Counted from the stretch's first letter, positions 26,397 through 42,443 are shown. The stretch: DNA of 64,000 nucleotides from an uncultured Nitrososphaerota archaeon (GCA_963701075.1 OY969559.1:384001-448000); one strand, 5' to 3'. Program-made: numbers and translations. Notes: generated by a model not told the origin, from the sequence alone.

Positions 26397-26819
26397 ATGG
26401 GGTTGTTTGGAAAGCCAAAGCCAAAAAAGAAAGTATTGTTTGCCTGCATAGAAAATGCAGGACGAAGCCAGATGGCAGAAGGTTTCTTTAGAAAATATGC
26501 TCCAGAGGGATGGGACGCAGTAAGTGGCGGAACAATTCCCAAGTCATATGTCAATCCGCTTGCTATACAAGTAATGAAAGAAGTTGGAATAGATATTAGC
26601 AATCAAAAGGCAAAGATATTATCTGAAGATCAAATTCGAGCTGCAGATTTGAAGGTGAATATGGGATGCATAGATACAACAAATTGTCCTTCTCTTGTTC
26701 TAGGTAATTATGCAGATTGGGGAATTGATGACCCTAAAGACAAACCAATAGAGAAAGTCAGAGAGATAAGAGATCAAATAGAAATCAGAGTGAAAGAACT
26801 TGTCAAGGGATTAAAGTGA
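26397..26819 (+). CDS. arsC: LMW-PTP-type arsenate reductase
   Basis: CIENAGRSQMAE P-loop; MGC..CP; W.IDDP. Confidence 0.88.
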   Translation: MGLFGKPKPKKKVLFACIENAGRSQMAEGFFRKYAPEGWDAVSGGTIPKSYVNPLAIQVMKEVGIDISNQKAKILSEDQIRAADLKVNMGCIDTTNCPSLVLGNYADWGIDDPKDKPIEKVREIRDQIEIRVKELVKGLK

Positions 26820-27574
26820 GTGATACAATAAAAGAAAAGGTAAAGGAAAGATACGGCAAGATTGCATTAACTGGAAACTCCGACTGTTGCTGTATGCCTG
26901 GAGAATGCAGTACAAATGATTCTCCTATTGATGCTACAAAAATAATTGGCTACGATCCAAAAGAGTTGGAATCAATCCCACAAGAATCCATTTTAGGTGT
27001 AGGCTGCGGTGCACCAATAAAATTTGCAGATCTCAAAGAAGGTGAAACTGTTTTAGATCTTGGTTCAGGTGCAGGAATAGATGCATTCCTGTCTGCAAAC
27101 AAGGTATCAAAATCAGGCAAAGTGATTGGCATTGACATGACTGACGAAATGTTAGAAAAAGCAAAGACAAATGCACGCAATGGCAATTATACCAATGTAG
27201 AATTTAGAAAAGGGGACATTGAGAAAAATATCCCAGTAAATGATGATACCATTGATGCAGTAATCAGTAACTGCGTGATTAATCTTACTGCAGACAAGAC
27301 AAGTGCATTCAGAGAAGTTTACAGAATTTTAAGAAAGGGCGGAAGAATGGTAATTTCTGATCTAGTAACAGACAAAGAACTAGAACAAGACCAGATCAAT
27401 GCAGAACAATGGTGTAGCTGTATTGATGGAGCATTGACACAGGAACACTATATTGAAAGTATCAAGGAAGCTGGCTTTCATGATGTTAGTGTTCTAGACC
27501 AGAGAGTGTACATGGAAGGCGAGAAGGTAGATGGCAGAAAAATCACCAGTCTTGTAATTAAAGCAATAAAGTGA
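26816..27574 (+). CDS. arsM: Arsenite S-adenosylmethionine methyltransferase
   Basis: GVGCGAP, LDLGSGAGID, ISNCVINL, WCSCIDGA. Confidence 0.92.
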   Translation: MSDTIKEKVKERYGKIALTGNSDCCCMPGECSTNDSPIDATKIIGYDPKELESIPQESILGVGCGAPIKFADLKEGETVLDLGSGAGIDAFLSANKVSKSGKVIGIDMTDEMLEKAKTNARNGNYTNVEFRKGDIEKNIPVNDDTIDAVISNCVINLTADKTSAFREVYRILRKGGRMVISDLVTDKELEQDQINAEQWCSCIDGALTQEHYIESIKEAGFHDVSVLDQRVYMEGEKVDGRKITSLVIKAIK

Positions 27575-28002
27575 GTGTTATGAATTTTTTCGAGCAGTCA
27601 AAGGACCAAAAAAAGATCCTATTTGTTTGTGTTGAAAACGCAGGACGAAGCCAGATGGCAGAGGGTTTCTTTAGAAAGTATGCTCCAAATGGATATGAGG
27701 CAATAAGTGCTGGAACAAAACCCACACCAGAGATAAATCCTGTTGCAGTAGAGGCAATGAAAGAAATTGGAATCGACCTTAGCAAACAGAAACCAAAGAT
27801 GCTAACTAGTGAAATTATTTCAGATTCAATTCTGAGCGTAAATATGGGCTGCATGGATAAAATTGAGTGCCCTGCAGTTTTTATGAAAAACTCTGTTGAC
27901 TGGGATATCGAAGACCCCAAAGGAAAGCCCATTGAGAAAGTGCGCGAGATAAGAGACCACATTGAACTAAAGGTAAGACAACTTTGCAAAACTCTAGAAT
28001 AA
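27571..28002 (+). CDS. arsC: LMW-PTP-type arsenate reductase, second copy
   Basis: CVENAGRSQMAE; MGC..CP; W.IEDP. Confidence 0.88.
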   Translation: MSVMNFFEQSKDQKKILFVCVENAGRSQMAEGFFRKYAPNGYEAISAGTKPTPEINPVAVEAMKEIGIDLSKQKPKMLTSEIISDSILSVNMGCMDKIECPAVFMKNSVDWDIEDPKGKPIEKVREIRDHIELKVRQLCKTLE

Positions 28003-28667
28003 CAAATAGGCTGTCCTCTAACCAAAAGAGGTTTTTTGCTGAGATCATTGGCACATTTGTAATAGTTGTCGCTGCAACAGGCTCTGTAGTTCTTGACGCA
28101 AAATATGTTGGCACATTTGGCTTGTGGTTTGTAGCACTTGCTCCCGCTGTTGCAGTTGCTCTGATGGTCTATGCGTTTGGAAAAATATCCCTGGCTCACT
28201 TTAATCCTGCTGTCACGGTTGGATTTTTAATTACAAAACACATGCCAAAAAGGCTTTTAGCTTTGTATTTTGCAGCTGAAATAATCGGTGCCTTGCTTGG
28301 AAGTGTCTTTGTAAAATATGCAATAGGTACAGAGGCAAACCTCGGCGCAAATTCACCAGATTATCATTTTCCAATTCCACTCATAATTGGCACTGAAGCT
28401 CTGGCTACTGCACTATTGATGGCAGTGATTCTGGCAGTTGTTCACACAAGGGGGCTCAAGGGCTTTGGCGGAATTGCAATAGGGGCTATGATAGGACTTG
28501 ACATCTTCTTTTTGTCATTTATCTCAGGTGCCTCAATGAATCCTGCTAGATCTTTGGCACCAGCCATAGTGTCTGGATATATCAATGATCTATGGCTATA
28601 CTTGACTGCAACTTTCATAGGAGCTGGCATAGTAGCTTGCATCTACCGAAGAAGATTTGTAAAATAA
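27984..28667 (+). CDS. MIP/aquaporin channel, probable arsenite channel
   Basis: HFNPAVT and MNPARS NPA boxes; overlaps arsC2. Confidence 0.9.
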   Translation: MQNSRITNRLSSNQKRFFAEIIGTFVIVVAATGSVVLDAKYVGTFGLWFVALAPAVAVALMVYAFGKISLAHFNPAVTVGFLITKHMPKRLLALYFAAEIIGALLGSVFVKYAIGTEANLGANSPDYHFPIPLIIGTEALATALLMAVILAVVHTRGLKGFGGIAIGAMIGLDIFFLSFISGASMNPARSLAPAIVSGYINDLWLYLTATFIGAGIVACIYRRRFVK

Positions 28668-28889: not shown

Positions 28890-29297
28890 ATGACAACAGA
28901 AACTCTTGAACATCAACAGCCATTGGATATTCTCTGCAAGCAAGTTTCAAGTATTGATGATCGCATTGAGCTAGTAGCCATCATAAATCGCAAGGGCAGA
29001 GTTATAGAAATGACTGCCAGAGATGATGGAATAAACAAAGATCTAACACCACACAAGAGAGAGATGTTGTTCATGGAGTTTGTGCTCCAGGCATCCATGA
29101 ACGGGGAATATGATGATGAATTTGGCAAAGTCAAGGGCCTGATTTTACAAAGAGAAAAGGTATCGGCATTCTCATTTCAGATATATGACTGCCTTTTGAT
29201 AGCCATAACCAAGCCGGTGCCTGAGCCAACAGTGATACAACAAAGGATTGCAGAAATAATTTTCAACCATACCAAATTAGAGTTGCCAGTAAACTAG
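28890..29297 (+). CDS. DUF6659 (roadblock-like) family protein
   Basis: LC..V..ID..I....IIN.KGR...YDDEFG.V......REKV..FSF. Confidence 0.75.
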   Translation: MTTETLEHQQPLDILCKQVSSIDDRIELVAIINRKGRVIEMTARDDGINKDLTPHKREMLFMEFVLQASMNGEYDDEFGKVKGLILQREKVSAFSFQIYDCLLIAITKPVPEPTVIQQRIAEIIFNHTKLELPVN

Positions 29298-32437: not shown

Positions 32438-32794
32438 TTGGCCACAACCACGACAAAAATAGTTAGATACAAAGTGAAGAAGAAAAAACTATCAAAACTC
32501 AAAACTGCTCTTGCAGCGTTTGTAGAGGATATCAAGAAACACGAGTCTGGTATAGTCCATTACGAGGTATTCCAAGAAAAGGACGACCCTACCATATTAG
32601 TACACGTGATGACATTCAAAGATAAAAAGGCCGAGACTGCGCATGCAAAGAGCGCACATGTTCAAAAATGGGTAAAAACACTGAGTTCTGTTTGCAAAGA
32701 AAAGCCTGAATTCACGAATCTTAAACTCGTTGAATCGATAAAGGGCTCAGAGCCGTCCCCCGATGCTAGTACCGTTCAAGAACCTCAGCAGTAA
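32438..32794 (+). CDS. ABM (antibiotic biosynthesis monooxygenase-like) domain protein
   Basis: E.G...YEV......P....V..F.D..A...H....H pattern; start placed at TTG 32438. Confidence 0.75.
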   Translation: MATTTTKIVRYKVKKKKLSKLKTALAAFVEDIKKHESGIVHYEVFQEKDDPTILVHVMTFKDKKAETAHAKSAHVQKWVKTLSSVCKEKPEFTNLKLVESIKGSEPSPDASTVQEPQQ

Positions 32795-33159
32795 GTGTGG
32801 GCTATTTTGATAATTTTCTGTGCAGTCTTATCTATGTCCACATCTGGTTCCATGGTTACAAGCAATACTCTTCTGCCAAGCGGAAAACTCATCATAACAG
32901 CTTTTTCTCTTCTAGAGGCAGAATACATCACAGGTCCCAAGCTATAATCGAAATCTTTTCTCAAGGACGCACGTAGCACAACATCAGAGTACATCTTTTG
33001 TCGCTCAGCCTCGTCCTCAATTGGCACTATTCCATGCTTAAAACCCCCTGCCACCAGCTTTCCCATACGATCAATCAGTCCCGCAAATGTTATCTCTGGT
33101 TCTCTAAGCAATCTGACGCACTTTAGATCATACAAAAACAATTCTTGATTACGTTCCAT
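32785..33159 (-). CDS. DUF6659 (roadblock-like) family protein
   Basis: FAGLIDRMGKLVAGG...RKDFDYSLGPV.Y....REK..MMSFP. Confidence 0.8.
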   Translation of the reverse strand: MERNQELFLYDLKCVRLLREPEITFAGLIDRMGKLVAGGFKHGIVPIEDEAERQKMYSDVVLRASLRKDFDYSLGPVMYSASRREKAVMMSFPLGRRVLLVTMEPDVDIDKTAQKIIKIAHTYC

Positions 33160-33251: not shown

Positions 33252-33980
33252 CTAACGATGCATTACTCTGGAAAGAAATTGGTCTATTCTATGCTGCAGA
33301 TCTGTATTAATTTCTGCTATGGTTCTGCTACCGTTGATAGGTATAAGGCCATATCTTTTCTGCATTAAATGAAATTCTTGTGAAATCTTACTTTGATAAA
33401 TAAGAAACGATTCATACATGTCATTTGATAACCCTATGTCTGCTCCTGACTCGTAATGATCTAGGGACAAATTCTTTTGAAATACTCGGTGTATCAGAAC
33501 AGAGGGTTCCACATCGAGATAAAACACAAGATCAGGCTTTATAGCAAAACCATAGAGATTGTGGCACCATCTCTTATCTAGACCCCGTACCACGTTTCTT
33601 GCTATCAAGGTGTAGATGTATCTATCAGCAAGGACAATGTAGCCAGCTTGCAACGCAGGTATTATCTTGTATTCAAATTGGTCTGCAAAATCTGCAGCGT
33701 AGAATAAAGCCAGGGTCTTTCTACCAAGATCATAGTTTTGCTTTGCCTCCAAAATCCCCCTGCTTACAAGCTCTGATCTTTTCAGTCCTGTATTCAAAAC
33801 TGCATGTCCGTCAGCTTCTAATCTTGCTGTAATTTTTTCAATCTGGGTGCTTCTGCCAGAAGCATCTGGCCCTTCAATAACAATCAATCTCCCTTTGATT
33901 TCTACATCTTGAAGATGGTTTATCCCGTGCCCGTAAAATTCCACAGGTCTACCGCCTAACTCCTTTTGTTTGTGTTTCAT
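33252..33980 (-). CDS. Thymidylate-kinase-like protein with variant P-loop; candidate non-catalytic polyphosphate kinase subunit
   Basis: IEGPDASGRST (Lys replaced by Arg), LADRY, IKPDL.FY, YESG.D. Confidence 0.75.
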   Translation of the reverse strand: MKHKQKELGGRPVEFYGHGINHLQDVEIKGRLIVIEGPDASGRSTQIEKITARLEADGHAVLNTGLKRSELVSRGILEAKQNYDLGRKTLALFYAADFADQFEYKIIPALQAGYIVLADRYIYTLIARNVVRGLDKRWCHNLYGFAIKPDLVFYLDVEPSVLIHRVFQKNLSLDHYESGADIGLSNDMYESFLIYQSKISQEFHLMQKRYGLIPINGSRTIAEINTDLQHRIDQFLSRVMHR

Positions 33981-34672
33981 GCCTGCACTCTCCTTACTTT
34001 TCTGCCTGGTGCTTGATGTGGAAGCAGCGGCATGATCATTTTTCTTACAATTTTTTGCTGCTCTTCAATGTTTAACGTGCCATCTATGATGGTAAAGCCC
34101 TCTGGCTCTGCCATGGAATCATACTGATCAATTATTCTCCCTTGGAAAATTCTATAGCTTTCATAGGGATCATTGCTCAAATTCAGATCCATTCCTGCTT
34201 CATAGTACTTTAACTTGGGACGGCCTACCAATATTCTATCAACTGCTATGTCAACTGGAACCTTAAAGTAGAAAGCCAAATCAGGCTTGATGGCAAAATC
34301 ATAAACCTTCCTGACCCAATCTGGATTGCAACCTCTTACAATATCTCTTACAAATGCAGTGTAGACATACCTGTCTGCAAGTACAAAGTATCCTGCACGA
34401 AGCAGAGGTAGAATATTTCGTTCATATCTGTCTGCAAAATCTGTTGCATGTAAAAGACTAAAAGTAGTAGGCGTGAGCAGTCCCTTTTTCTTTCCCTTTG
34501 AAGTTATTTCTTTTACCATCTCTGAAGAATTCCATTCTGACTTGAAAATATTGAGCCCTTTGTAGCTGAGCCATTTTTCTAAAAGGTGGATCTGAGTTGA
34601 CTTGCCAGAGCCATCTATTCCCTCTACAACGATAAGCTTACCTTCCATTTTCAATGGCTTTGCTATTTTCAA
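33977..34672 (-). CDS. Thymidylate-kinase-like protein with intact P-loop; candidate catalytic polyphosphate kinase subunit
   Basis: VEGIDGSGKST, LADRY, IKPDL.FY, YYEAGMD; 4-nt overlap with its paralog. Confidence 0.75.
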   Translation of the reverse strand: MKIAKPLKMEGKLIVVEGIDGSGKSTQIHLLEKWLSYKGLNIFKSEWNSSEMVKEITSKGKKKGLLTPTTFSLLHATDFADRYERNILPLLRAGYFVLADRYVYTAFVRDIVRGCNPDWVRKVYDFAIKPDLAFYFKVPVDIAVDRILVGRPKLKYYEAGMDLNLSNDPYESYRIFQGRIIDQYDSMAEPEGFTIIDGTLNIEEQQKIVRKMIMPLLPHQAPGRKVRRVQA

Positions 34673-34935
34673 GGCGATCTAGTTAACCCCCACATCCATT
34701 TTTAGGTCTTCCATTACTTACACCCATTTTGCGTGCCACGCTCAAATTTTTTAACACTGTAGATCATGTTTGTAACTGTGATTATGACTTTGATCTATAT
34801 AGTCTTCATAGGGATATGAAAGATAAGAAATCATGATCGCATATTAGATATCCCGCTAAATTTTATCTGTACATGTGAATAAGATGGCGGAGATTTTGCA
34901 AAAGTTCCAATTACAAATGAAGATGGTAGCATAGA

Positions 34936-35433
34936 ATGGACTTGTTTATCTTAAGGCATGGGGAGGCAGGCAGAAGCTCTGCCACTAGTAGGGATGACTC
35001 TAAAAGAGCCCTAACAGTTGAAGGAGAGAAGGAAATCAAGGATATCTCAAAAGGAATCAAGGGACTGGGAATTGAATTTGATTACATCTTCACCAGTCCG
35101 TTGCTAAGAGCAAAACAAACGGCCGAGCTAGTCTCAAAAATTGTTGTACCTAAAAATCAAATTAAAGAGATAGATGAACTAAAACCTGAAGGAAATAAAC
35201 TACAACTCTACAATAAACTTTCTAATTTAAAACAAGATTCTTCAGTGCTTATTGTGGGACATGAACCATATCTGAGTGAATTGATAGGAGAGGCAATCTC
35301 TCCAGGAGAATGCAGAATTGATTTGAAAAAGGCAGGATTTGCTCGCATCAGAGTAACAAACAGCCTTCCAAAACTTAAGGGAGAATTGAGATGGCTATTT
35401 ACTCCAAAACATTTGAAGAGAATGGCTCAGTGA
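34936..35433 (+). CDS. sixA: SixA-type phosphohistidine phosphatase
   Basis: LRHGEA, SPLLRAKQTA, VGHEP. Confidence 0.9.
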   Translation: MDLFILRHGEAGRSSATSRDDSKRALTVEGEKEIKDISKGIKGLGIEFDYIFTSPLLRAKQTAELVSKIVVPKNQIKEIDELKPEGNKLQLYNKLSNLKQDSSVLIVGHEPYLSELIGEAISPGECRIDLKKAGFARIRVTNSLPKLKGELRWLFTPKHLKRMAQ

Positions 35434-35525
35434 TCTATGTGCCGTATGTTTTTCATTTAGTAAAAAAATATCAATCTTATCTAGATTAATAGTGACATGA
35501 TCATATCGAAACGAGGTAATACTAA

Positions 35526-37034
35526 CTGAAAATATCTGTGATTGATTTAGGATACAATTCCGCCAAGTTAGTTACGTATAATGTAAAAGATGATGACTCG
35601 TTTGACGTTTCTCAACAAGAAGGAGTCAAAGTTAAGCTTGGTGAAGGACTAGACGAAAAAGGAAAACTGGGCAAAAAGCCAATGCTTCGCGCAATTGAAA
35701 CCCTGAGATTGTTTAGAGATATAATTCAGCTACAGCCAATAAAGTCTGTTTTACCATTAGCCACAAGTGCAGTAAGGGAAGCAAGCAATAAGGATGAATT
35801 TCTTGATGAAGTTTACAGAGAAGCCGGATTTAGATTCAAAGTGCTTTCTGAAAAAGAAGAAGCTCTATACTCCTATGTGGGGGCCATCAAATCTCTTCAA
35901 ATTCCAAACGTACTATTCTTCGATATAGGAGGGGGCAGCTTGGAGATAGTCCATGCTGAGGGATTCAAGATAAGAAAGGTGATATCCCTGCCTCTGGGAG
36001 CCCTGAGATTAACACAACAATTTGATGGTGAAAACGGGGGATTTGGTGAAAAAAATTACAAAAACATGAAGCGATTCATTTGGAGCCTTCTTCCCGAGAA
36101 GAAGGAAATGGGTCTTGGTAAAGATACAAGGCTTGTCGGCGTTGGAGGCGTCTTGAGGGCATTGGCAAGATATGATCAAAAAGTCTCAAGATACCCATTG
36201 GACAAGATGCACAATTACATCATGAATTCCAAGTTTGTCAACTCTATTACCAAACAACTCTACAAGATGAAATATGATGACATTGCAGAGATCTCAGTTA
36301 TTGGTTCTAGCAGAGCCGAGACAATAGTAGCCGGCTCCTGCGTGATAGATATACTGATGGAGAAATTTGGCTTTAACAATCTATGTGTAAGCAACCATGG
36401 CCTAAGGGAAGGAGCACTTTCTATATTTCTTGAAAACCCAAAGGCATATCACTCAAAAAATATCACGGCAGAGCAAATTCGTCAAACAATAGGATCAAAG
36501 ATCTCATTTCAGCCATACCAACATACCAAGAACTTTGTTGATAGCTTGATCTCGTCAAAGCTATTGAATAAACGTGAGCTTGAAATTCTCTCATATGCAG
36601 AAAAGAAAATATCAGAAAAATTATCATTTAACAATCCACAAAGTCTGTTCTATTCCATAATGGACGAAGACATGGCAATTAGCCATGTTAACCAATTGAT
36701 TTTAGGGTTATCTCTAGTTCATACAAGACATGTAAAAACATCAGACTGGCTATTTGCAAGATACAAGCCAATTTTGTCTCAACAGGATAAAGCGACAATA
36801 AGAAAAATCTCATCATTGATTGTACTGTTACAAGTACTGGAACAGACAAAATCAAAAATAGAATTGAAACGTTACACAGATGGAATAATGGAACTGCATG
36901 TCGCGCAATCAAAACTGCTGCCAAAGATGTTGCTTAGAAACGCCTTGAATAAATTTGAAAATGCATTTGATGCACATGTGATTTGCATGTCGCGTGACAA
37001 TCAGAATATGCAGAGCTCTGTTCTGGAATTATAG
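35526..37034 (+). CDS. ppx: Ppx/GppA exopolyphosphatase
   Basis: KISVIDLGYNS, ATSAVREA, EEA, DIGGGSLE, GLREG; the frame opens at CTG 35526. Confidence 0.92.
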   Translation: MKISVIDLGYNSAKLVTYNVKDDDSFDVSQQEGVKVKLGEGLDEKGKLGKKPMLRAIETLRLFRDIIQLQPIKSVLPLATSAVREASNKDEFLDEVYREAGFRFKVLSEKEEALYSYVGAIKSLQIPNVLFFDIGGGSLEIVHAEGFKIRKVISLPLGALRLTQQFDGENGGFGEKNYKNMKRFIWSLLPEKKEMGLGKDTRLVGVGGVLRALARYDQKVSRYPLDKMHNYIMNSKFVNSITKQLYKMKYDDIAEISVIGSSRAETIVAGSCVIDILMEKFGFNNLCVSNHGLREGALSIFLENPKAYHSKNITAEQIRQTIGSKISFQPYQHTKNFVDSLISSKLLNKRELEILSYAEKKISEKLSFNNPQSLFYSIMDEDMAISHVNQLILGLSLVHTRHVKTSDWLFARYKPILSQQDKATIRKISSLIVLLQVLEQTKSKIELKRYTDGIMELHVAQSKLLPKMLLRNALNKFENAFDAHVICMSRDNQNMQSSVLEL

Positions 37035-37842
37035 AATTAATTTTTTGGGATCGTCAAACCCCTCGTCCTTGAAAATCTGGACAAATCTTTGGTATTTTTC
37101 TCTCCTTTCCTGGATTTCCTCTCTTATTGTTTCTGCTAGTTCGTGGGGCCCCTTCACATCCCTTAGATAATCTAAGAACATGTCACTGTCATGAATCAAA
37201 CCCAGTTCATCCTGAATTTTTTTCAAGCTCTTAACTGACTTTAAAGAATTCATTTTGTCAGAAGTTAATTCAATTGAATAGCGCAATTTTTTGAAATCCT
37301 TTCTTAACTTGTGAATCTCTTCTACTTTTTTATCATCATTTAAAACAAGAGGAATATTGTATTCTATATCGGCAACCAGTTCTGATACAATTTTTTGAAA
37401 TCTTTTACGTAACTTTGGTTCTATGGCATCTTTTAATTTGGGCGGTGGAACACTTTTTAATTTTAAAGCTGAGCTTGTGTCCAATGCCTAGTTGTTGTTT
37501 GCGTTTGTCATTTATGGAATTTATGATCTGGCTAAATTGAGCAGAATGTTGTTTCTCTAATTTGGCACGAATTATGTCAAAGTCTCTTATTTGCGTATTA
37601 ACCTTGAATAGGGTTTTAGCTTGCTTTACATAGTTTTGTACATCCTCGCTTTTCCTGTTTTTCTTGGGCAGGATTCTGTAAACTGACTCCATTCGTCTGA
37701 TTGCTATCCTGATATCATGAATATTGTCCTCGCTTGGGTTTTCAATATAATCATCTAATTTTTTAGTAAATGTCTTGATAATTTTCTTGAATTTTTCAAG
37801 CAGTAGTTTCTTTTTGGGGTAGATTATTTGCCCTGTTTCCAT
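37029..37842 (-). CDS. CHAD-domain polyphosphate-binding protein (apparent +1 frameshift at 37471)
   Basis: IHDIRIAIRR...IRDFD in the first ORF; IHKLRKDFKKLRY..QDELGLIHD in the second. Confidence 0.88.
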
Positions 37843-37935: not shown

Positions 37936-38985
37936 CTATGAGACATTATCAGAGATTACGTCCTGCACTGTCTCGTTTATCACTGCTTCTCCAATGTCAC
38001 TAGAATATTCAGCCGTTCTGCGAATATCTTCCAAGACAAACTTTATCACACTGCTGTATTTTTTGGATTCTTCTAGGCTGTCTGTGAACTCTTTTTCTTT
38101 TTCTGCTATTCTGCGTGCATTTGACGTAACCGCATCTGCCAATGCATAATCTCTTTTGTTTAGGGCAGAAATTGAATCTTCAAAGACTTTGAGTGATTCT
38201 TCGCTAAGCTTTGTAATCTTTTGCAAAAGAGCCGGTTCTAGTGTGGATTTGAGGAACTTTACCCTGCTTGCTATTGAAACTGCATGGTCTGCAACCCTTT
38301 CTATTGATTTGACCACTATTCTATAACTGATGCAATCAGAAGGCTTCTTCAATCCAATATCGCGCAATATTCTTTCATGTTCTACGGCAAGGGTGAGATT
38401 TCGTAGTATGTACAAGCTAAAGCGGTCAACCTCATCATCCAAATGGGTGATCTCTTCTCCAAGTTCAGTGTCCATCTCCTTCAAGGCATCAATGGCTTGT
38501 CTATGCATTGTAGTTGTTAACAAAAACATGCGTTTTAGGGCATCACTTATCGAAAGTTCAGGCAAGCTTGTCAAGATTTGAATAGTTATAGACTCTGGTG
38601 TTGATTCTACAATTTCTGTACCAATCATATTTCTTCTTACAAGATCTCTTATTGCCTGTTTGTGTTCAAGTTGAATCCTTCCTCCTTTGGATTGGATCTC
38701 AATTATTTGATAACCTGCCAAGTACATTGCTATCACCTTTCGTTGAATGGATTCAACTGACTCTTTTTGACTGATGATAGTTTTTGATTTTGCTATCTTG
38801 GGTGACTGTGAGCCTCCCGTTGGTAAAATCGAAAGGGACTTGTTAACATTTTTTACAATGGAAACCGGATCGCCTGTTTTGAGATTTAACTCATCGATCC
38901 ATTTCTTAGGAAGAGAGAGCACGTAAGTAGATCCGCCTACAAGTTGTAGCTTTCGTACCTCTTTTTCATTTAGCAGCTCTGCCAC
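37936..38985 (-). CDS. AbrB-PhoU phosphate uptake regulator
   Basis: RKLQLVGGSTYVLSLPKKW AbrB domain; DDEVDR, ERVADHA PhoU repeats. Confidence 0.92.
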   Translation of the reverse strand: MAELLNEKEVRKLQLVGGSTYVLSLPKKWIDELNLKTGDPVSIVKNVNKSLSILPTGGSQSPKIAKSKTIISQKESVESIQRKVIAMYLAGYQIIEIQSKGGRIQLEHKQAIRDLVRRNMIGTEIVESTPESITIQILTSLPELSISDALKRMFLLTTTMHRQAIDALKEMDTELGEEITHLDDEVDRFSLYILRNLTLAVEHERILRDIGLKKPSDCISYRIVVKSIERVADHAVSIASRVKFLKSTLEPALLQKITKLSEESLKVFEDSISALNKRDYALADAVTSNARRIAEKEKEFTDSLEESKKYSSVIKFVLEDIRRTAEYSSDIGEAVINETVQDVISDNVS

Positions 38986-39119: not shown

Positions 39120-40097
39120 TTGTACTTGCTAGAAACTATTAAGCTAAAAGGAGGTTCTCCTATATTTGACAAGGTTTTCAAGATTGGAGTTACCATTGCT
39201 GCCACTTACATATTGGTAATTATAGTTCTCATCGTAATTCAGTTAGTCACTAATTCATATGATATATGGGCTCAGGAAGGAATCGCGTTTCTTACCGGGT
39301 CTGATTGGAACGCTGTGGAAGGAAGTGAATCGTATGGCGCGGCACCTTATATCGTAGGCACATTTGTGACTGCCGGAATTGCCATGCTAATCGGAGTGCC
39401 GTTAAGCATAGGCATTGCAATGTTCCTGGCTGAACTTGCACCTAAGTTTATGCGTTCGATACTCTCGTTTATAGTTGAATTGTTGGCTGCTATTCCAAGT
39501 ATAATTTACGGTTTATGGGGACTGTTCGTGTTTAGGAATTACATTCTGAATTGGATTGAAACCCCACTTAACAATGCTCTTGGCGGCAGTGTATGGCTCT
39601 TCTCTGGAACTCCCTTTGGACTTGATATCTTTACTGCAAGTATAGTGCTTGCTATTATGATAATTCCGACGATAGCAGCTATTTCGCGAGAAATTATGAT
39701 TGCAGTACCACAGAGTCAGAGAGAGGCTGCATACATGTTGGGGGCTACAAAATGGGAAACATTCAAGATGGCCGTAATCCCATATTCAAAGTCCGGTCTT
39801 GTTGGTGCTGCAATACTTGGACTTGGAAGAGCTGTGGGAGAAACCATGGCTATTACACTATTAATTGGAAACGCCACCGGGGCAGGTGCATTTCCATCAT
39901 CTTTGTTCTCACCCGGTCAGACATTGTCAAGTATAATTGCAAATGAATTTCCAGAAGCCTCCAACGGAAGTCTTCACATGGCAGCACTGATTGGATGTGG
40001 ATTGATACTTTTCGCCATTGCAATAAGTATTAACATTGTTGCCCAAATTCTAGTTTCTAAAGTACTAAAAACACACCAAGGAGCAGTTTTAGCATGA
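39120..40097 (+). CDS. pstC: Phosphate ABC transporter permease PstC
   Basis: ELLAAIPSIIYGLWG, LGLGRAVGETMA. Confidence 0.95.
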   Translation: MYLLETIKLKGGSPIFDKVFKIGVTIAATYILVIIVLIVIQLVTNSYDIWAQEGIAFLTGSDWNAVEGSESYGAAPYIVGTFVTAGIAMLIGVPLSIGIAMFLAELAPKFMRSILSFIVELLAAIPSIIYGLWGLFVFRNYILNWIETPLNNALGGSVWLFSGTPFGLDIFTASIVLAIMIIPTIAAISREIMIAVPQSQREAAYMLGATKWETFKMAVIPYSKSGLVGAAILGLGRAVGETMAITLLIGNATGAGAFPSSLFSPGQTLSSIIANEFPEASNGSLHMAALIGCGLILFAIAISINIVAQILVSKVLKTHQGAVLA

Positions 40098-41008
40098 TCA
40101 CACCAGAACAACGAGCAGAATACAGGAAACACTTTAGAAATAACTTCACAAGTAGACTGATTACCGATAGGATAGTGGTAGGAATTGTATTTGGTTGTGT
40201 TATACTGGCAATAGTTCCTCTGGGAAGCATTCTTCTTGAAATTATAAGAAACGGAGCCCCTGCATTGAGCGTAGAATTACTTACTGCTCCCCCTGGAGCA
40301 GTAGGATCAGCTGACGTTGGTGGAATCGGCCCTGCTATTCAAGGAACTTTATTGTTAATTGGCATGTCAAGCCTCATTGGAGTGCCAGTTGGGGTCTTAG
40401 GAGGAATCTTCCTTTCAGAATATGGCAACAACAAATACGGCCAGATGATAAGATTTTTCAATGATGTCTTGGCAGAATTTCCCACCATTGTAATAGGACT
40501 TTTTGCATTTGCAGTCATCGTACTTACGCTTGGTTACTTTTCTATTATTGCAGGAATGTTTGCACTTTCAGTTATAATGTTGCCAGTTATAACAAGAACA
40601 ACTGAAGAATCGCTCAAGCTTGTTCCTGTGACATATAGGGAGGCAGGATACGCACTTGGAATTCAAAGATCCGTAATAATATTTAAAATTCTGGTGACAA
40701 GTGCCAAAAGTGGATTGATAACAGGAATCATGTTATCAATAGCAAGAATAGCAGGCGAGACGGCTCCTTTGATCTTTACAATACTTGGTAACGATGACTT
40801 TTTCTCAGGCTTTGATCAACCGCTGGATGCTTTACCCCTTAGAATCTATCGACTTGCAAATCTTCCATATGACAGTGCAACAGCTCAAGCATGGGGCGGG
40901 GCATTGATTTTAATATTGATAATACTTACACTTAATGTAGGAGTAAGATATTTGTTCTTAAGAAAACGTGGAGGAGGTGGCAGATTTAGAATCACAGCAG
41001 GTGGATAA
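40094..41008 (+). CDS. pstA: Phosphate ABC transporter permease PstA
   Basis: [25 protein letters not shown]. Confidence 0.95.
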
Positions 41009-41009
41009 A

Positions 41010-41816
41010 ATGGAAACGCTAACAAGAACTCCAATCACACAGAAATCTGCAGAAGAGCCGCGATACAAGCTGATTGCAGAAGATATTGTTGCAAGCTACA
41101 ATGGTATTGAAGCTGTAAAGAAAATTAACATGAAATTCAGAGAAAAAGCGGTAACTGCATTAATAGGACCATCTGGGTGTGGGAAAACTACATTTCTTCG
41201 AACTCTTAATAGAATGCATGAATTGACAAAGAATGCCAGAGTGACAGGCAAAGTCCTATTGGACGGCCAAGATCTGTATTCTAATAAAGAAGACGCCATT
41301 ATCCACAGAAGAAAGATAGGAATGGTATTCCAAAAACCAAATCCATTTCCTACAATGTCAATTTATGATAACGTAGCTGCAGGACTAAAGCTAAACGGTG
41401 TAAAAGACAAAAAGATCATGAACGAAATAGTACAAGGGTGCCTAGAGATGGTATACCTATGGGATGAGGTAAAACATGATCTGAAAAAACCTGGAATGAG
41501 CCTCTCAGGAGGACAACAGCAACGCCTCTGCATTGCACGCGCTCTTGCCATACAACCCGAAGTTCTCTTGATGGATGAGCCTGCATCTGCACTTGATCCA
41601 ATTGCTACTCAAAAGATTGAAGAAATGATAAATGAACTGAAAAAAGAATACACCATAATTATAGTAACCCACAACATGCAACAAGCTGTGAGAGTATCTG
41701 ATTACACTGGATTCATGTATCTGGGAGATTTGGTTGAGTTTGGGGAGACCAAGCAAATCTTTGAGAATCCAAGAAACGAGATCACAGCCAAGTATGTACA
41801 GGGGCAGTTTGGCTAG
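41010..41816 (+). CDS. pstB: Phosphate ABC transporter ATPase PstB
   Basis: [34 protein letters not shown]; start placed at ATG 41010. Confidence 0.96.
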
Positions 41817-42443
41817 TTGACGAGACTAATAGATCCCCATCTTGAAAAGCTCTCATTTCTGATGGAAAAGATGGGTGCATTATCTCTTAATTGCATAAAC
41901 ATGGCATTAGACTCTTACCTGCAAGGAAAAAATGTGCGCCATGAAGTACACAAGATTTCTCAAGAAATAATGAGTTTGTATGACGAGGTAGGTGACCTGA
42001 CTTTTGATATGATACTGAGATATCAACCAGTTGCAAGCGATTTTAGATTGATAAGGTCCTGCATAGAGGTCTCCTATGGTTTTACTCGATTTGGCCGTTA
42101 TGCGTATGACATTGCGGCAGTCAGAGACATGTTCGGTGATCTCTCCGAATGCAGAAACGAGGCAATCTACACGCTTTCAGGCGAGATAAAACAAATGATA
42201 AACATGGCCGTACAATGCTTTGCGACCTTGGACTTGGAAAAGACAAAACAGCTTAGAACTGATGAAGACTTGGTGGACAAGTACTACAACAAGCATCTCC
42301 CAATGCTGATTAATTCCACCAGTGTCAAGTGTGCTCTTGCTGATGCGCTAGTACTCAGATATCTGGAAAGAATAGCTGATCATGCTGCATTCATGGGCGA
42401 GTCAGTAAACTATATTGTCACAGGCCAGAGACGTTTTCAATAA
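41817..42443 (+). CDS. phoU: PhoU-family protein
   Basis: RYQPVASD.R and RYLERIADHA. Confidence 0.9.
   Translation: MTRLIDPHLEKLSFLMEKMGALSLNCINMALDSYLQGKNVRHEVHKISQEIMSLYDEVGDLTFDMILRYQPVASDFRLIRSCIEVSYGFTRFGRYAYDIAAVRDMFGDLSECRNEAIYTLSGEIKQMINMAVQCFATLDLEKTKQLRTDEDLVDKYYNKHLPMLINSTSVKCALADALVLRYLERIADHAAFMGESVNYIVTGQRRFQ

Follow-up and report, generated by a model that had tools for sequence, protein, structure and literature searches.

A thymidylate-kinase-like gene pair beside ppx in a Nitrosotalea-type ammonia oxidiser very probably encodes a two-subunit polyphosphate kinase

How an ammonia-oxidising archaeon might synthesise polyphosphate (polyP) is the question raised by a pair of genes in a 64-kb stretch of DNA from an uncultured Nitrososphaerota archaeon (GCA_963701075.1 OY969559.1:384001-448000), hereafter the window. 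The two open reading frames (ORFs), ORF A and ORF B, encode paralogs with the thymidylate kinase fold and lie next to a gene for an exopolyphosphatase (ppx). A first-pass annotation of the sequence had read the pair as a catalytic plus a regulatory polyP kinase that would be mistaken for deoxythymidine monophosphate (dTMP) kinase. We found that ORF A and ORF B very probably encode the subunits cPPK3 (catalytic, c) and rPPK3 (regulatory, r) of the family-3 polyphosphate kinase (PPK3), an offshoot of the thymidylate kinase fold; similarity to the Sulfolobus protein st1543, placement in PPK3 clades, a separate thymidylate kinase gene (tmk) and conserved linkage all support this reading. As had been predicted, every close homologue with a functional name is labelled dTMP kinase or thymidylate kinase in public records, and the practical value of the assignment is to correct these annotations. 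The genome that contains the window, a single 1.92-Mb contig with a completeness of 94.96%, carries archaeal amoA, and the nearest named homologues of ORF B are from Nitrosotalea (92% for a metagenome-assembled genome (MAG) of Nitrosotalea sp., 84% for N. devaniterrae). The two genes are as follows, with positions counted within the window:

33977..34672, minus strand: ORF A, cPPK3, the catalytic subunit; 231 amino acids (aa) from a TTG start at 34672, with an alternative ATG start at 34648
33252..33980, minus strand: ORF B, rPPK3, the subunit with a regulatory or scaffold role; 242 aa; its P-loop has Arg, DRY is kept and the N-terminus is extended by ~25 aa

The stop codon of ORF A falls inside the start codon of ORF B in a 4-bp overlap (ATGA), so the two genes are probably translationally coupled. 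Both products match PF02223 (Thymidylate_kin; 76 bits for ORF A and 78.3 bits for ORF B, cut-off 27), and both contain a YE(A/S)G.D motif, which reads YYEAGMD in one and HYESGAD in the other. The P-loop of ORF A retains its lysine (EGIDGSGKST) and is accompanied by DRY, KKK and the lid RPKLKYYEAGMD; the P-loop of ORF B has arginine in place of lysine (EGPDASGRST), and its DRX region reads ADRYIY. The genes showed zero differences in the contigs of four sequencing runs (full cover in X1, X3 and X4, partial in X5).

The top sequence match of both ORFs is st1543 of S. tokodaii (STK_15430; 2plr, 4nzy, 4rzx, 5h70), which was deposited as a dTMP kinase and whose structures are of the catalytic-type subunit alone, the heteromer being unsolved. 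ORF A matched st1543 (2plr/5h70) at E 2.1e-65 and the best canonical thymidylate kinase at E 7.4e-14; for ORF B the values were 1.2e-36 (2plr) and 1.2e-13. An AlphaFold2 model of ORF B (pLDDT 91.2, the predicted score in the local distance difference test) had the same protein as its best structural match (2plr/5h70; target-normalised TM-score 0.90-0.93, root-mean-square deviation 1.8-2.4 Å, 36-37% identity), followed by canonical thymidylate kinases. The overlapping paralogs with Lys and Arg P-loops reported by the first-pass annotation are thus borne out by the reading frames, the overlap, PF02223 and the ORF B model.

The same annotation had mentioned a two-subunit 'PPK3' of Sulfolobus in a comparable gene context, and such an enzyme exists. 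In the portion of the paper available to us, Saci_2019 and Saci_2020 of Sulfolobus acidocaldarius are described as a heteromeric PPK3 with an alpha2beta2 structure (SaPPK3), whose genes share an operon with those for SixA, Ppx and CHAD (Hofmann et al., J Biol Chem 2026, PMC12995831). Saci_2019 (cPPK3) forms polyP from ATP, and ATP from polyP and ADP, and Saci_2020 (rPPK3) is inactive alone and boosts cPPK3 about ten-fold (PMC12995831). The two systems are alike in having two adjacent thymidylate-kinase-fold paralogues, c then r, the first with a Lys P-loop, DRY and a basic lid and the second without the cleft charges; in both, sixA, ppx and CHAD are nearby, a canonical tmk lies elsewhere, and the subunits belong to the same c and r clades. 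They differ in that sixA-ppx is divergent from the pair in the window and not in one operon with it, and in that the window organism is a mesophile that also has PPK2.

To place the two ORFs, a tree of 106 rows was built with IQ-TREE (careful run) from 21 c subunits, 21 r subunits, 6 canonical tmk sequences and 58 cluster representatives. The representatives came from the best 150 matches to ORF B, of which 107 had 195-300 aa and were kept; from these, 16 that had no full P-loop and 33 lacking the E[AS]G motif of the lid were then removed. PPK3 split from the six canonical tmk sequences with support of 100/94. ORF A belongs to a c clade of 41 rows, all with a P-loop Lys (85/82), and ORF B to its sister r clade (89/84, core 91/97), where the P-loops carry Arg or Cys except in three Lys rows, namely two Sulfolobaceae-like r subunits and one representative. 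The pair is therefore a member of the PPK3 family, with ORF A its c and ORF B its r subunit, and stands apart from canonical tmk. We also considered that r of the ammonia oxidisers is a lineage-specific duplicate of c. The approximately unbiased (AU) test rejected this: forcing the c and r of ammonia oxidisers into one clade cost 122 log-likelihood units (p-AU 0.0003, for a group named after the tree was seen), which indicates that the c/r duplication is older than the spread of the genes to these archaea.

The two subunits also differ in charge. Among the 21 c subunits aligned, all 21 have GxDGSGKS[ST], DRY, the KKK patch and a basic lid. We defined as c-specific those columns in which K/R makes up 80% or more of the c clade and no more than 44% of the r clade, and found eight. 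ORF A has K/R at 8/8 (K62, R82, R85, R121, K137, R151, K155, R210); in ORF B these columns are occupied, in the same order, by Q, Q, Y, H, D, N, D and Q (0/8). In the account available to us, the cleft charges of the Sulfolobus enzyme are conserved in cPPK3 and not in rPPK3 (PMC12995831), and the eight-column pattern, as read from the alignment, fits a charged polyP cleft on cPPK3 only.

The neighbourhood of the pair, here called the phosphate island, consists of the following features:

34673..34935, no strand: divergent intergenic region between the cPPK3 and sixA genes; candidate promoter/operator, with a core conserved in an alignment of five Nitrosotalea-like loci
34936..35433, plus strand: SixA-like histidine phosphatase; TIGR00249 at 95.3 bits (cut-off 74.5), PF00300
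35538..37034, plus strand: exopolyphosphatase Ppx; PF02541 at 174 bits, TIGR03706 at 247 bits, under its cut-off of 307
37029..37842, minus strand: CHAD-domain (polyphosphate-granule) protein in two frames, 37405..37842 and 37029..37484; PF05235 on both
37936..38985, minus strand: AbrB/SpoVT-type DNA-binding domain fused to PhoU domains (PF04014 and PF01895); candidate phosphate regulator
39120..42443, plus strand: pstC, pstA, pstB and phoU, a phosphate ABC transporter and PhoU; PF00528 twice, PF00005, PF01895
42500..45148, plus strand: two PstS-type phosphate-binding proteins; PF12849 (PBP_like_2) at 142.8 and 122.5 bits
30114..31739, minus strand, on the other flank: phosphoesterase-family protein (phospholipase C/acid phosphatase type); PF04185 at 235.7 bits

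The names of the genes at 39120..42443 as Pst components follow from their context and from the neighbouring PstS-type binding proteins. The layout first described for this locus, with the pair divergent from sixA-ppx and beside CHAD and pst/phoU, was confirmed by TIGR00249, PF02541, PF05235 and the Pst-type domains. The phosphoesterase is part of the phosphate-acquisition neighbourhood, and PF04185 occurs again beside the PPK3 pair in the relative loci L036, L039, L046 and L072.

The first-pass annotation had named a lack of conserved linkage to ppx, CHAD or sixA as grounds for giving up its proposal. When 401 genomes sampled evenly from the phylum were examined for cPPK3 matches at E <= 1e-30, 29 had one: the window's genome, 12/56 genomes of its own family, 2/2 of another family of the same order and 14/15 of a Sulfolobaceae-like family (at ~50% identity), with 0/327 in the rest. 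Twenty loci were compared, namely all 14 of the two families of the window's order and six of the 14 Sulfolobaceae-like ones. The r gene directly follows c in 20/20, and sixA and ppx are adjacent in 9/14 and 6/6, respectively. CHAD is adjacent in 9/14 of the former; in the six Sulfolobaceae-like loci it was not found with the window's CHAD as query, although PMC12995831, as far as available to us, puts CHAD in the Sulfolobus operon, and we read this as a query too distant rather than as absence. Among 48 named Nitrososphaeria-type loci, whose flanks are often short, the counts were 32 for ppx, 30 for sixA and 29 for CHAD. The pair occurs in loci with the titles Nitrosotalea, Nitrosopumilus, Cenarchaeum, Nitrosotenuis, Nitrososphaera, Nitrosocosmicus and Nitrosopolaris. 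Linkage of the pair to ppx, sixA and CHAD is thus conserved in both sets of loci.

Ppx (PF02541) was found in 37/401 sampled genomes. Within the window's genome and the two families of its order (n=59, related genomes that are not independent in such a count), it is present in exactly the 15 carriers of the pair and in 0/44 non-carriers. The carriers belong to ten different genera, and in several of these most genomes are negative (e.g. carriers 1/23, 1/7); this scatter points to joint gain or loss of the pair and ppx. Such joint gain or loss, in both ammonia-oxidiser families, would mark those lineages that are able to keep a polyP store.

Several observations weigh against reading the pair as PPK3. 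Both ORFs narrowly pass the dTMP kinase model TIGR00041 (85.4 and 83.6 bits, cut-off 83.25). The c and r clades are supported moderately and not decisively. The window pair is only ~50% (c) and ~30% (r) identical to its Sulfolobaceae-like orthologues. The inactivity of rPPK3 is attributed, in the available part of PMC12995831, to a replaced DRX arginine, and ORF B does not have this replacement but keeps DRY; because of this retained arginine, the regulatory mechanism may differ from that of Sulfolobus rPPK3. Finally, a PPK2 is encoded elsewhere in the genome, so PPK3 is not the sole candidate polyP enzyme of this organism, and an argument from a missing polyphosphate kinase fails here.

The first of these points bears on the explanation that the two genes encode genuine dTMP kinases (or kinases of another nucleoside monophosphate) and have ppx as an incidental neighbour, which we consider highly improbable. 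Besides the marginal TIGR00041 match, this explanation can draw on the public names and on st1543, which was not only deposited as a dTMP kinase but formerly reported as an unusual thymidylate kinase, according to the accessible part of a preprint (10.1101/2024.08.28.610084). Canonical Tmk and the PPK3 proteins share fold and Pfam family, P-loop, a DRY-type motif and a lid. However, the genome has a better canonical tmk, the separate gene that the first-pass annotation had suggested looking for, at C1:504633-505169 (134.5 bits to PF02223), 86 kb from the pair. It is one of four PF02223 matches in the genome, the others being ORF A, ORF B and one sub-threshold match, and five other carrier genomes have exactly three PF02223 genes each (canonical, c and r). 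The lid insert of PPK3 (...YYEAGMD...) is gapped in the genome's own Tmk; in three other Tmk of the window's order its columns are empty or nearly so, and in two Sulfolobaceae-like Tmk they hold unrelated residues. In the described Sulfolobus assays, dTMP kinase activity was found only for Saci_0893 and for neither Saci_2019 nor Saci_2020 (PMC12995831, in the part available). The separate clade of the pair, its exact co-occurrence with Ppx in the sampled relatives and the loss of the P-loop lysine in one of the two proteins also argue against dTMP kinases.

The retained DRX arginine bears on what the regulatory subunit does. A PPK3-type enzyme could have an r subunit that still binds ATP or ADP and is an allosteric sensor of energy charge, or a weak second active site, instead of an inert scaffold; judging from the sequences, we regard this as possible but somewhat unlikely. 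P-loops with a Lys-to-Arg exchange often bind nucleotide without turnover. All 15 r subunits from the two families of the window's order have GPD[AS]SGRST together with DRY, and R120, R128, R132 and R165 of ORF B are conserved as in the c clade. Of the representatives, 91 have a readable P-loop, with Arg in 57 (55 of these with DR[YFW]), Cys in seven and Lys in 27. Arg with DR[YF] was likewise found in the r genes of 79/80 named loci (the 80th is truncated), with a Lys-type c gene directly upstream in 74/80, these loci having been found with the r alignment and so being those most similar to the window and biased to its type. That Arg is so strictly conserved and has not drifted suggests a site still in use. 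Against this, Cys P-loops in the seven representatives favour lost function over a tuned site, Arg is also present in four of the six Sulfolobaceae-like r subunits (the other two have Lys), and Sulfolobus rPPK3 was inactive in the assays described (PMC12995831, as available to us).

The Sulfolobaceae-like r subunits sit on a long branch and have DGY in 6/6 cases, whereas the window's r has DRY with the P-loop exchange. From the sequences, we read the Arg-to-Gly change in DRX as a lineage trait of Sulfolobaceae that does not define the family. The helper form with an Arg P-loop and DRY is that of the window, of all sampled relatives of its order and of most bacterial homologues. For enzymologists, this makes loss of the P-loop lysine, and not of the DRX arginine, the hallmark of rPPK3 across the family. 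A further difference is the N-terminal extension of ~25 residues, which is conserved in the r subunits of the window's order, modelled at pLDDT 93-94 in ORF B and missing from the Sulfolobaceae-like r. We tentatively suggest that the usual PPK3 helper, with Arg for Lys in the P-loop, DRY and the core arginines, may be a candidate nucleotide-binding sensor that would set the threshold of an ATP/ADP switch between polyP storage and ATP regeneration, and would do so beside PPK2 in ~40% of the ammonia-oxidiser carriers.

The PPK2 gene itself is intact and encodes a single-domain protein of 297 aa. It was found at C1:1107833-1108540 (locus L005, 1417..2310, minus strand) and passes the NCBIfam equivalog 'ADP-polyphosphate phosphotransferase' (515.8 bits, cut-off 450). 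The first-pass annotation had reported neither ppk1 nor ppk2 in the window, and this is consistent with the genome searches, in which the sole PPK2 match lies outside the window; its suggestion to look elsewhere in the genome led to PPK2 but not to PPK1, for which the only domain searched, PF02503, had no match in the 94.96% complete genome. In the available part of PMC12995831, 'the majority' of PPK3 carriers are said to have neither PPK1 nor PPK2. ORF A and ORF B did not match the PPK2 domain (PF03976) at E <= 0.01. Class II PPK2 with two domains (such as PA3455 of P. aeruginosa, discussed in the same paper as far as available) likewise combines an active module with a degenerate paralogous oligomerising module; it differs in belonging to another P-loop kinase family and in having its modules fused, whereas those of the window are separate genes.

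PPK3 and PPK2 may split the work. A further possibility, which we think unlikely, is that PPK2 carries out the polyP/ADP reaction and that the pair exchanges phosphate between polyP and some acceptor that is not ADP/ATP (a different nucleotide, for example, or a protein). PPK2 is present in 11/401 sampled genomes and, within the two families and the window's genome, in 6/15 pair carriers vs 0/44 others, which suggests complementary roles; a SixA-type phosphohistidine phosphatase is also constantly linked to the pair. However, nine of the 15 pair carriers are without PPK2, cPPK3 has the same nucleotide-site motifs, without variation, in the window's order and in Sulfolobaceae, and SaPPK3 favours ADP/ATP (PMC12995831, in the part available).

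The activity of the PPK3 pair, its direction, stoichiometry and physiological role would follow the Sulfolobus enzyme by analogy. ORF A and ORF B would be co-translated and assemble as a heteromer, which is alpha2beta2 in Sulfolobus. cPPK3 would hold ATP or ADP at the P-loop and polyP in the basic cleft and transfer the terminal phosphate reversibly, and rPPK3 would organise the oligomer and activate cPPK3. Only when the ATP/ADP ratio is high would net polyP synthesis be expected; at low energy charge, ATP would be regenerated from polyP. We read polyP as a phosphate store and energy buffer because the pair sits in a phosphate island (sixA, ppx, CHAD, AbrB-PhoU, pstCAB-phoU, two pstS and a phosphoesterase). 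With energy charge high and Pst delivering phosphate, polyP would build up on CHAD-coated granules; at low energy charge PPK3, and here also PPK2, would regenerate ATP; and when phosphate is scarce Ppx would free it. PolyP could thereby serve a slow-growing ammonia oxidiser of acid soil as both store and buffer.

Ammonia-oxidising archaea are major nitrifiers, and PPK3 would supply their unassigned polyP-synthesising enzyme. An account of ammonia-oxidiser genomes mentions, in the part available, only ppA and ppX (Qin et al. 2020), and in our searches of the literature on polyphosphate and Nitrosotalea, or on polyphosphate kinase and ammonia-oxidizing archaea, we did not find an assignment of such an enzyme. 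The enzyme family and its presence in Nitrososphaeraceae/Nitrososphaerales were already published (2024-2026): in their available parts, PMC12995831 names Nitrososphaeraceae among the carriers, in silico only, and preprint 10.1101/2024.08.28.610084 gives the carriers as Sulfolobales and 'some Nitrososphaerales'. Neither of these sources, to the extent available, reports an assayed PPK3 from an ammonia oxidiser. The first-pass annotation knew of no characterisation in Nitrososphaerota, and the window pair is an uncharacterised member of a described family. What the window adds is a complete, well-conserved polyP module in an acid-soil Nitrosotalea-type genome.

The r alignment also retrieved relatives well beyond these archaea, with at least 591 confirmed stretches among at least 600 matched. 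Among the matches listed, 32 loci are outside Nitrososphaeria, and 25 of the 32 are titled Verrucomicrobiota, Limisphaerales or Pedosphaera. The r relatives outside Nitrososphaeria (L118-L150, among the matches listed) have 50-57% identity, and each has an Arg P-loop and DRY, with a Lys-type partner upstream in all but one. Going by these matches, the PPK3 family appears wider than the 'a few bacteria' of the published accounts, as far as they were available, and r-type homologues appear common in Verrucomicrobiota. Also among the matches listed were one record titled Ca. Methanoliparum and one MAG labelled Klebsiella pneumoniae, apparently a mislabelled bin.

Fusion proteins were found among the best 150 ORF B matches. 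Two kinase domains (c and r) are joined in one chain in P0122, P0155 and P0212, and two kinase domains are combined with Ppx-GppA domain III/HD in P0127, P0147 and P0204. These fusions of c with r count in favour of the PPK3 reading and speak, indirectly, for the predicted heteromer. A major facilitator superfamily transporter is fused to a kinase domain in P0242, P0245, P0251, P0261 and P0266 (with APH and/or DUF2252 in four of the five), and an inorganic pyrophosphatase to a kinase domain in P0252.

The CHAD gene of the window is split into two frames, and the PF05235 match of its N-terminal half is below the cut-off. In 9/9 relatives with both halves, CHAD is a single open frame of 256-308 aa. 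The contigs of runs X1 and X4 are one letter short at 37471 (X3 and X5 have no cover there; X1 may be the source sample of the genome), and removing one base at this position restores a single CHAD frame of 270 aa. Most likely, either an error in the assembly or a minor variant accounts for the split. Such an error is consistent with the genome's lower completeness figure of 94.96%.

The conserved core of the divergent intergenic region (34673..34935) includes TCTATATAG in the alignment of the five Nitrosotalea-like loci, across which it reads …ATGAcTgTGaTCTATATAG…TATGAAA…TTAGATAT. From its sequence, this core could be two TATA-like promoter elements or a site for a regulator.

Two minor observations concern the genes on the far side of the pair. 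A few kb upstream of the phosphate island, at 26816..28667 on the plus strand, three tightly packed genes encode an S-adenosylmethionine-dependent (SAM) methyltransferase (PF13847), a low-molecular-weight phosphatase/ArsC-type protein (PF01451) and a major intrinsic protein (MIP) channel (PF00230), a trio that looks like an arsenic-detoxification cluster; arsenate is an analogue of phosphate. Paralogues of DUF6659 at 28890..29297 (plus strand) and 32785..33159 (minus strand) flank the phosphoesterase region, and a DUF6659 gene recurs next to the module in L039, L071 and L072.

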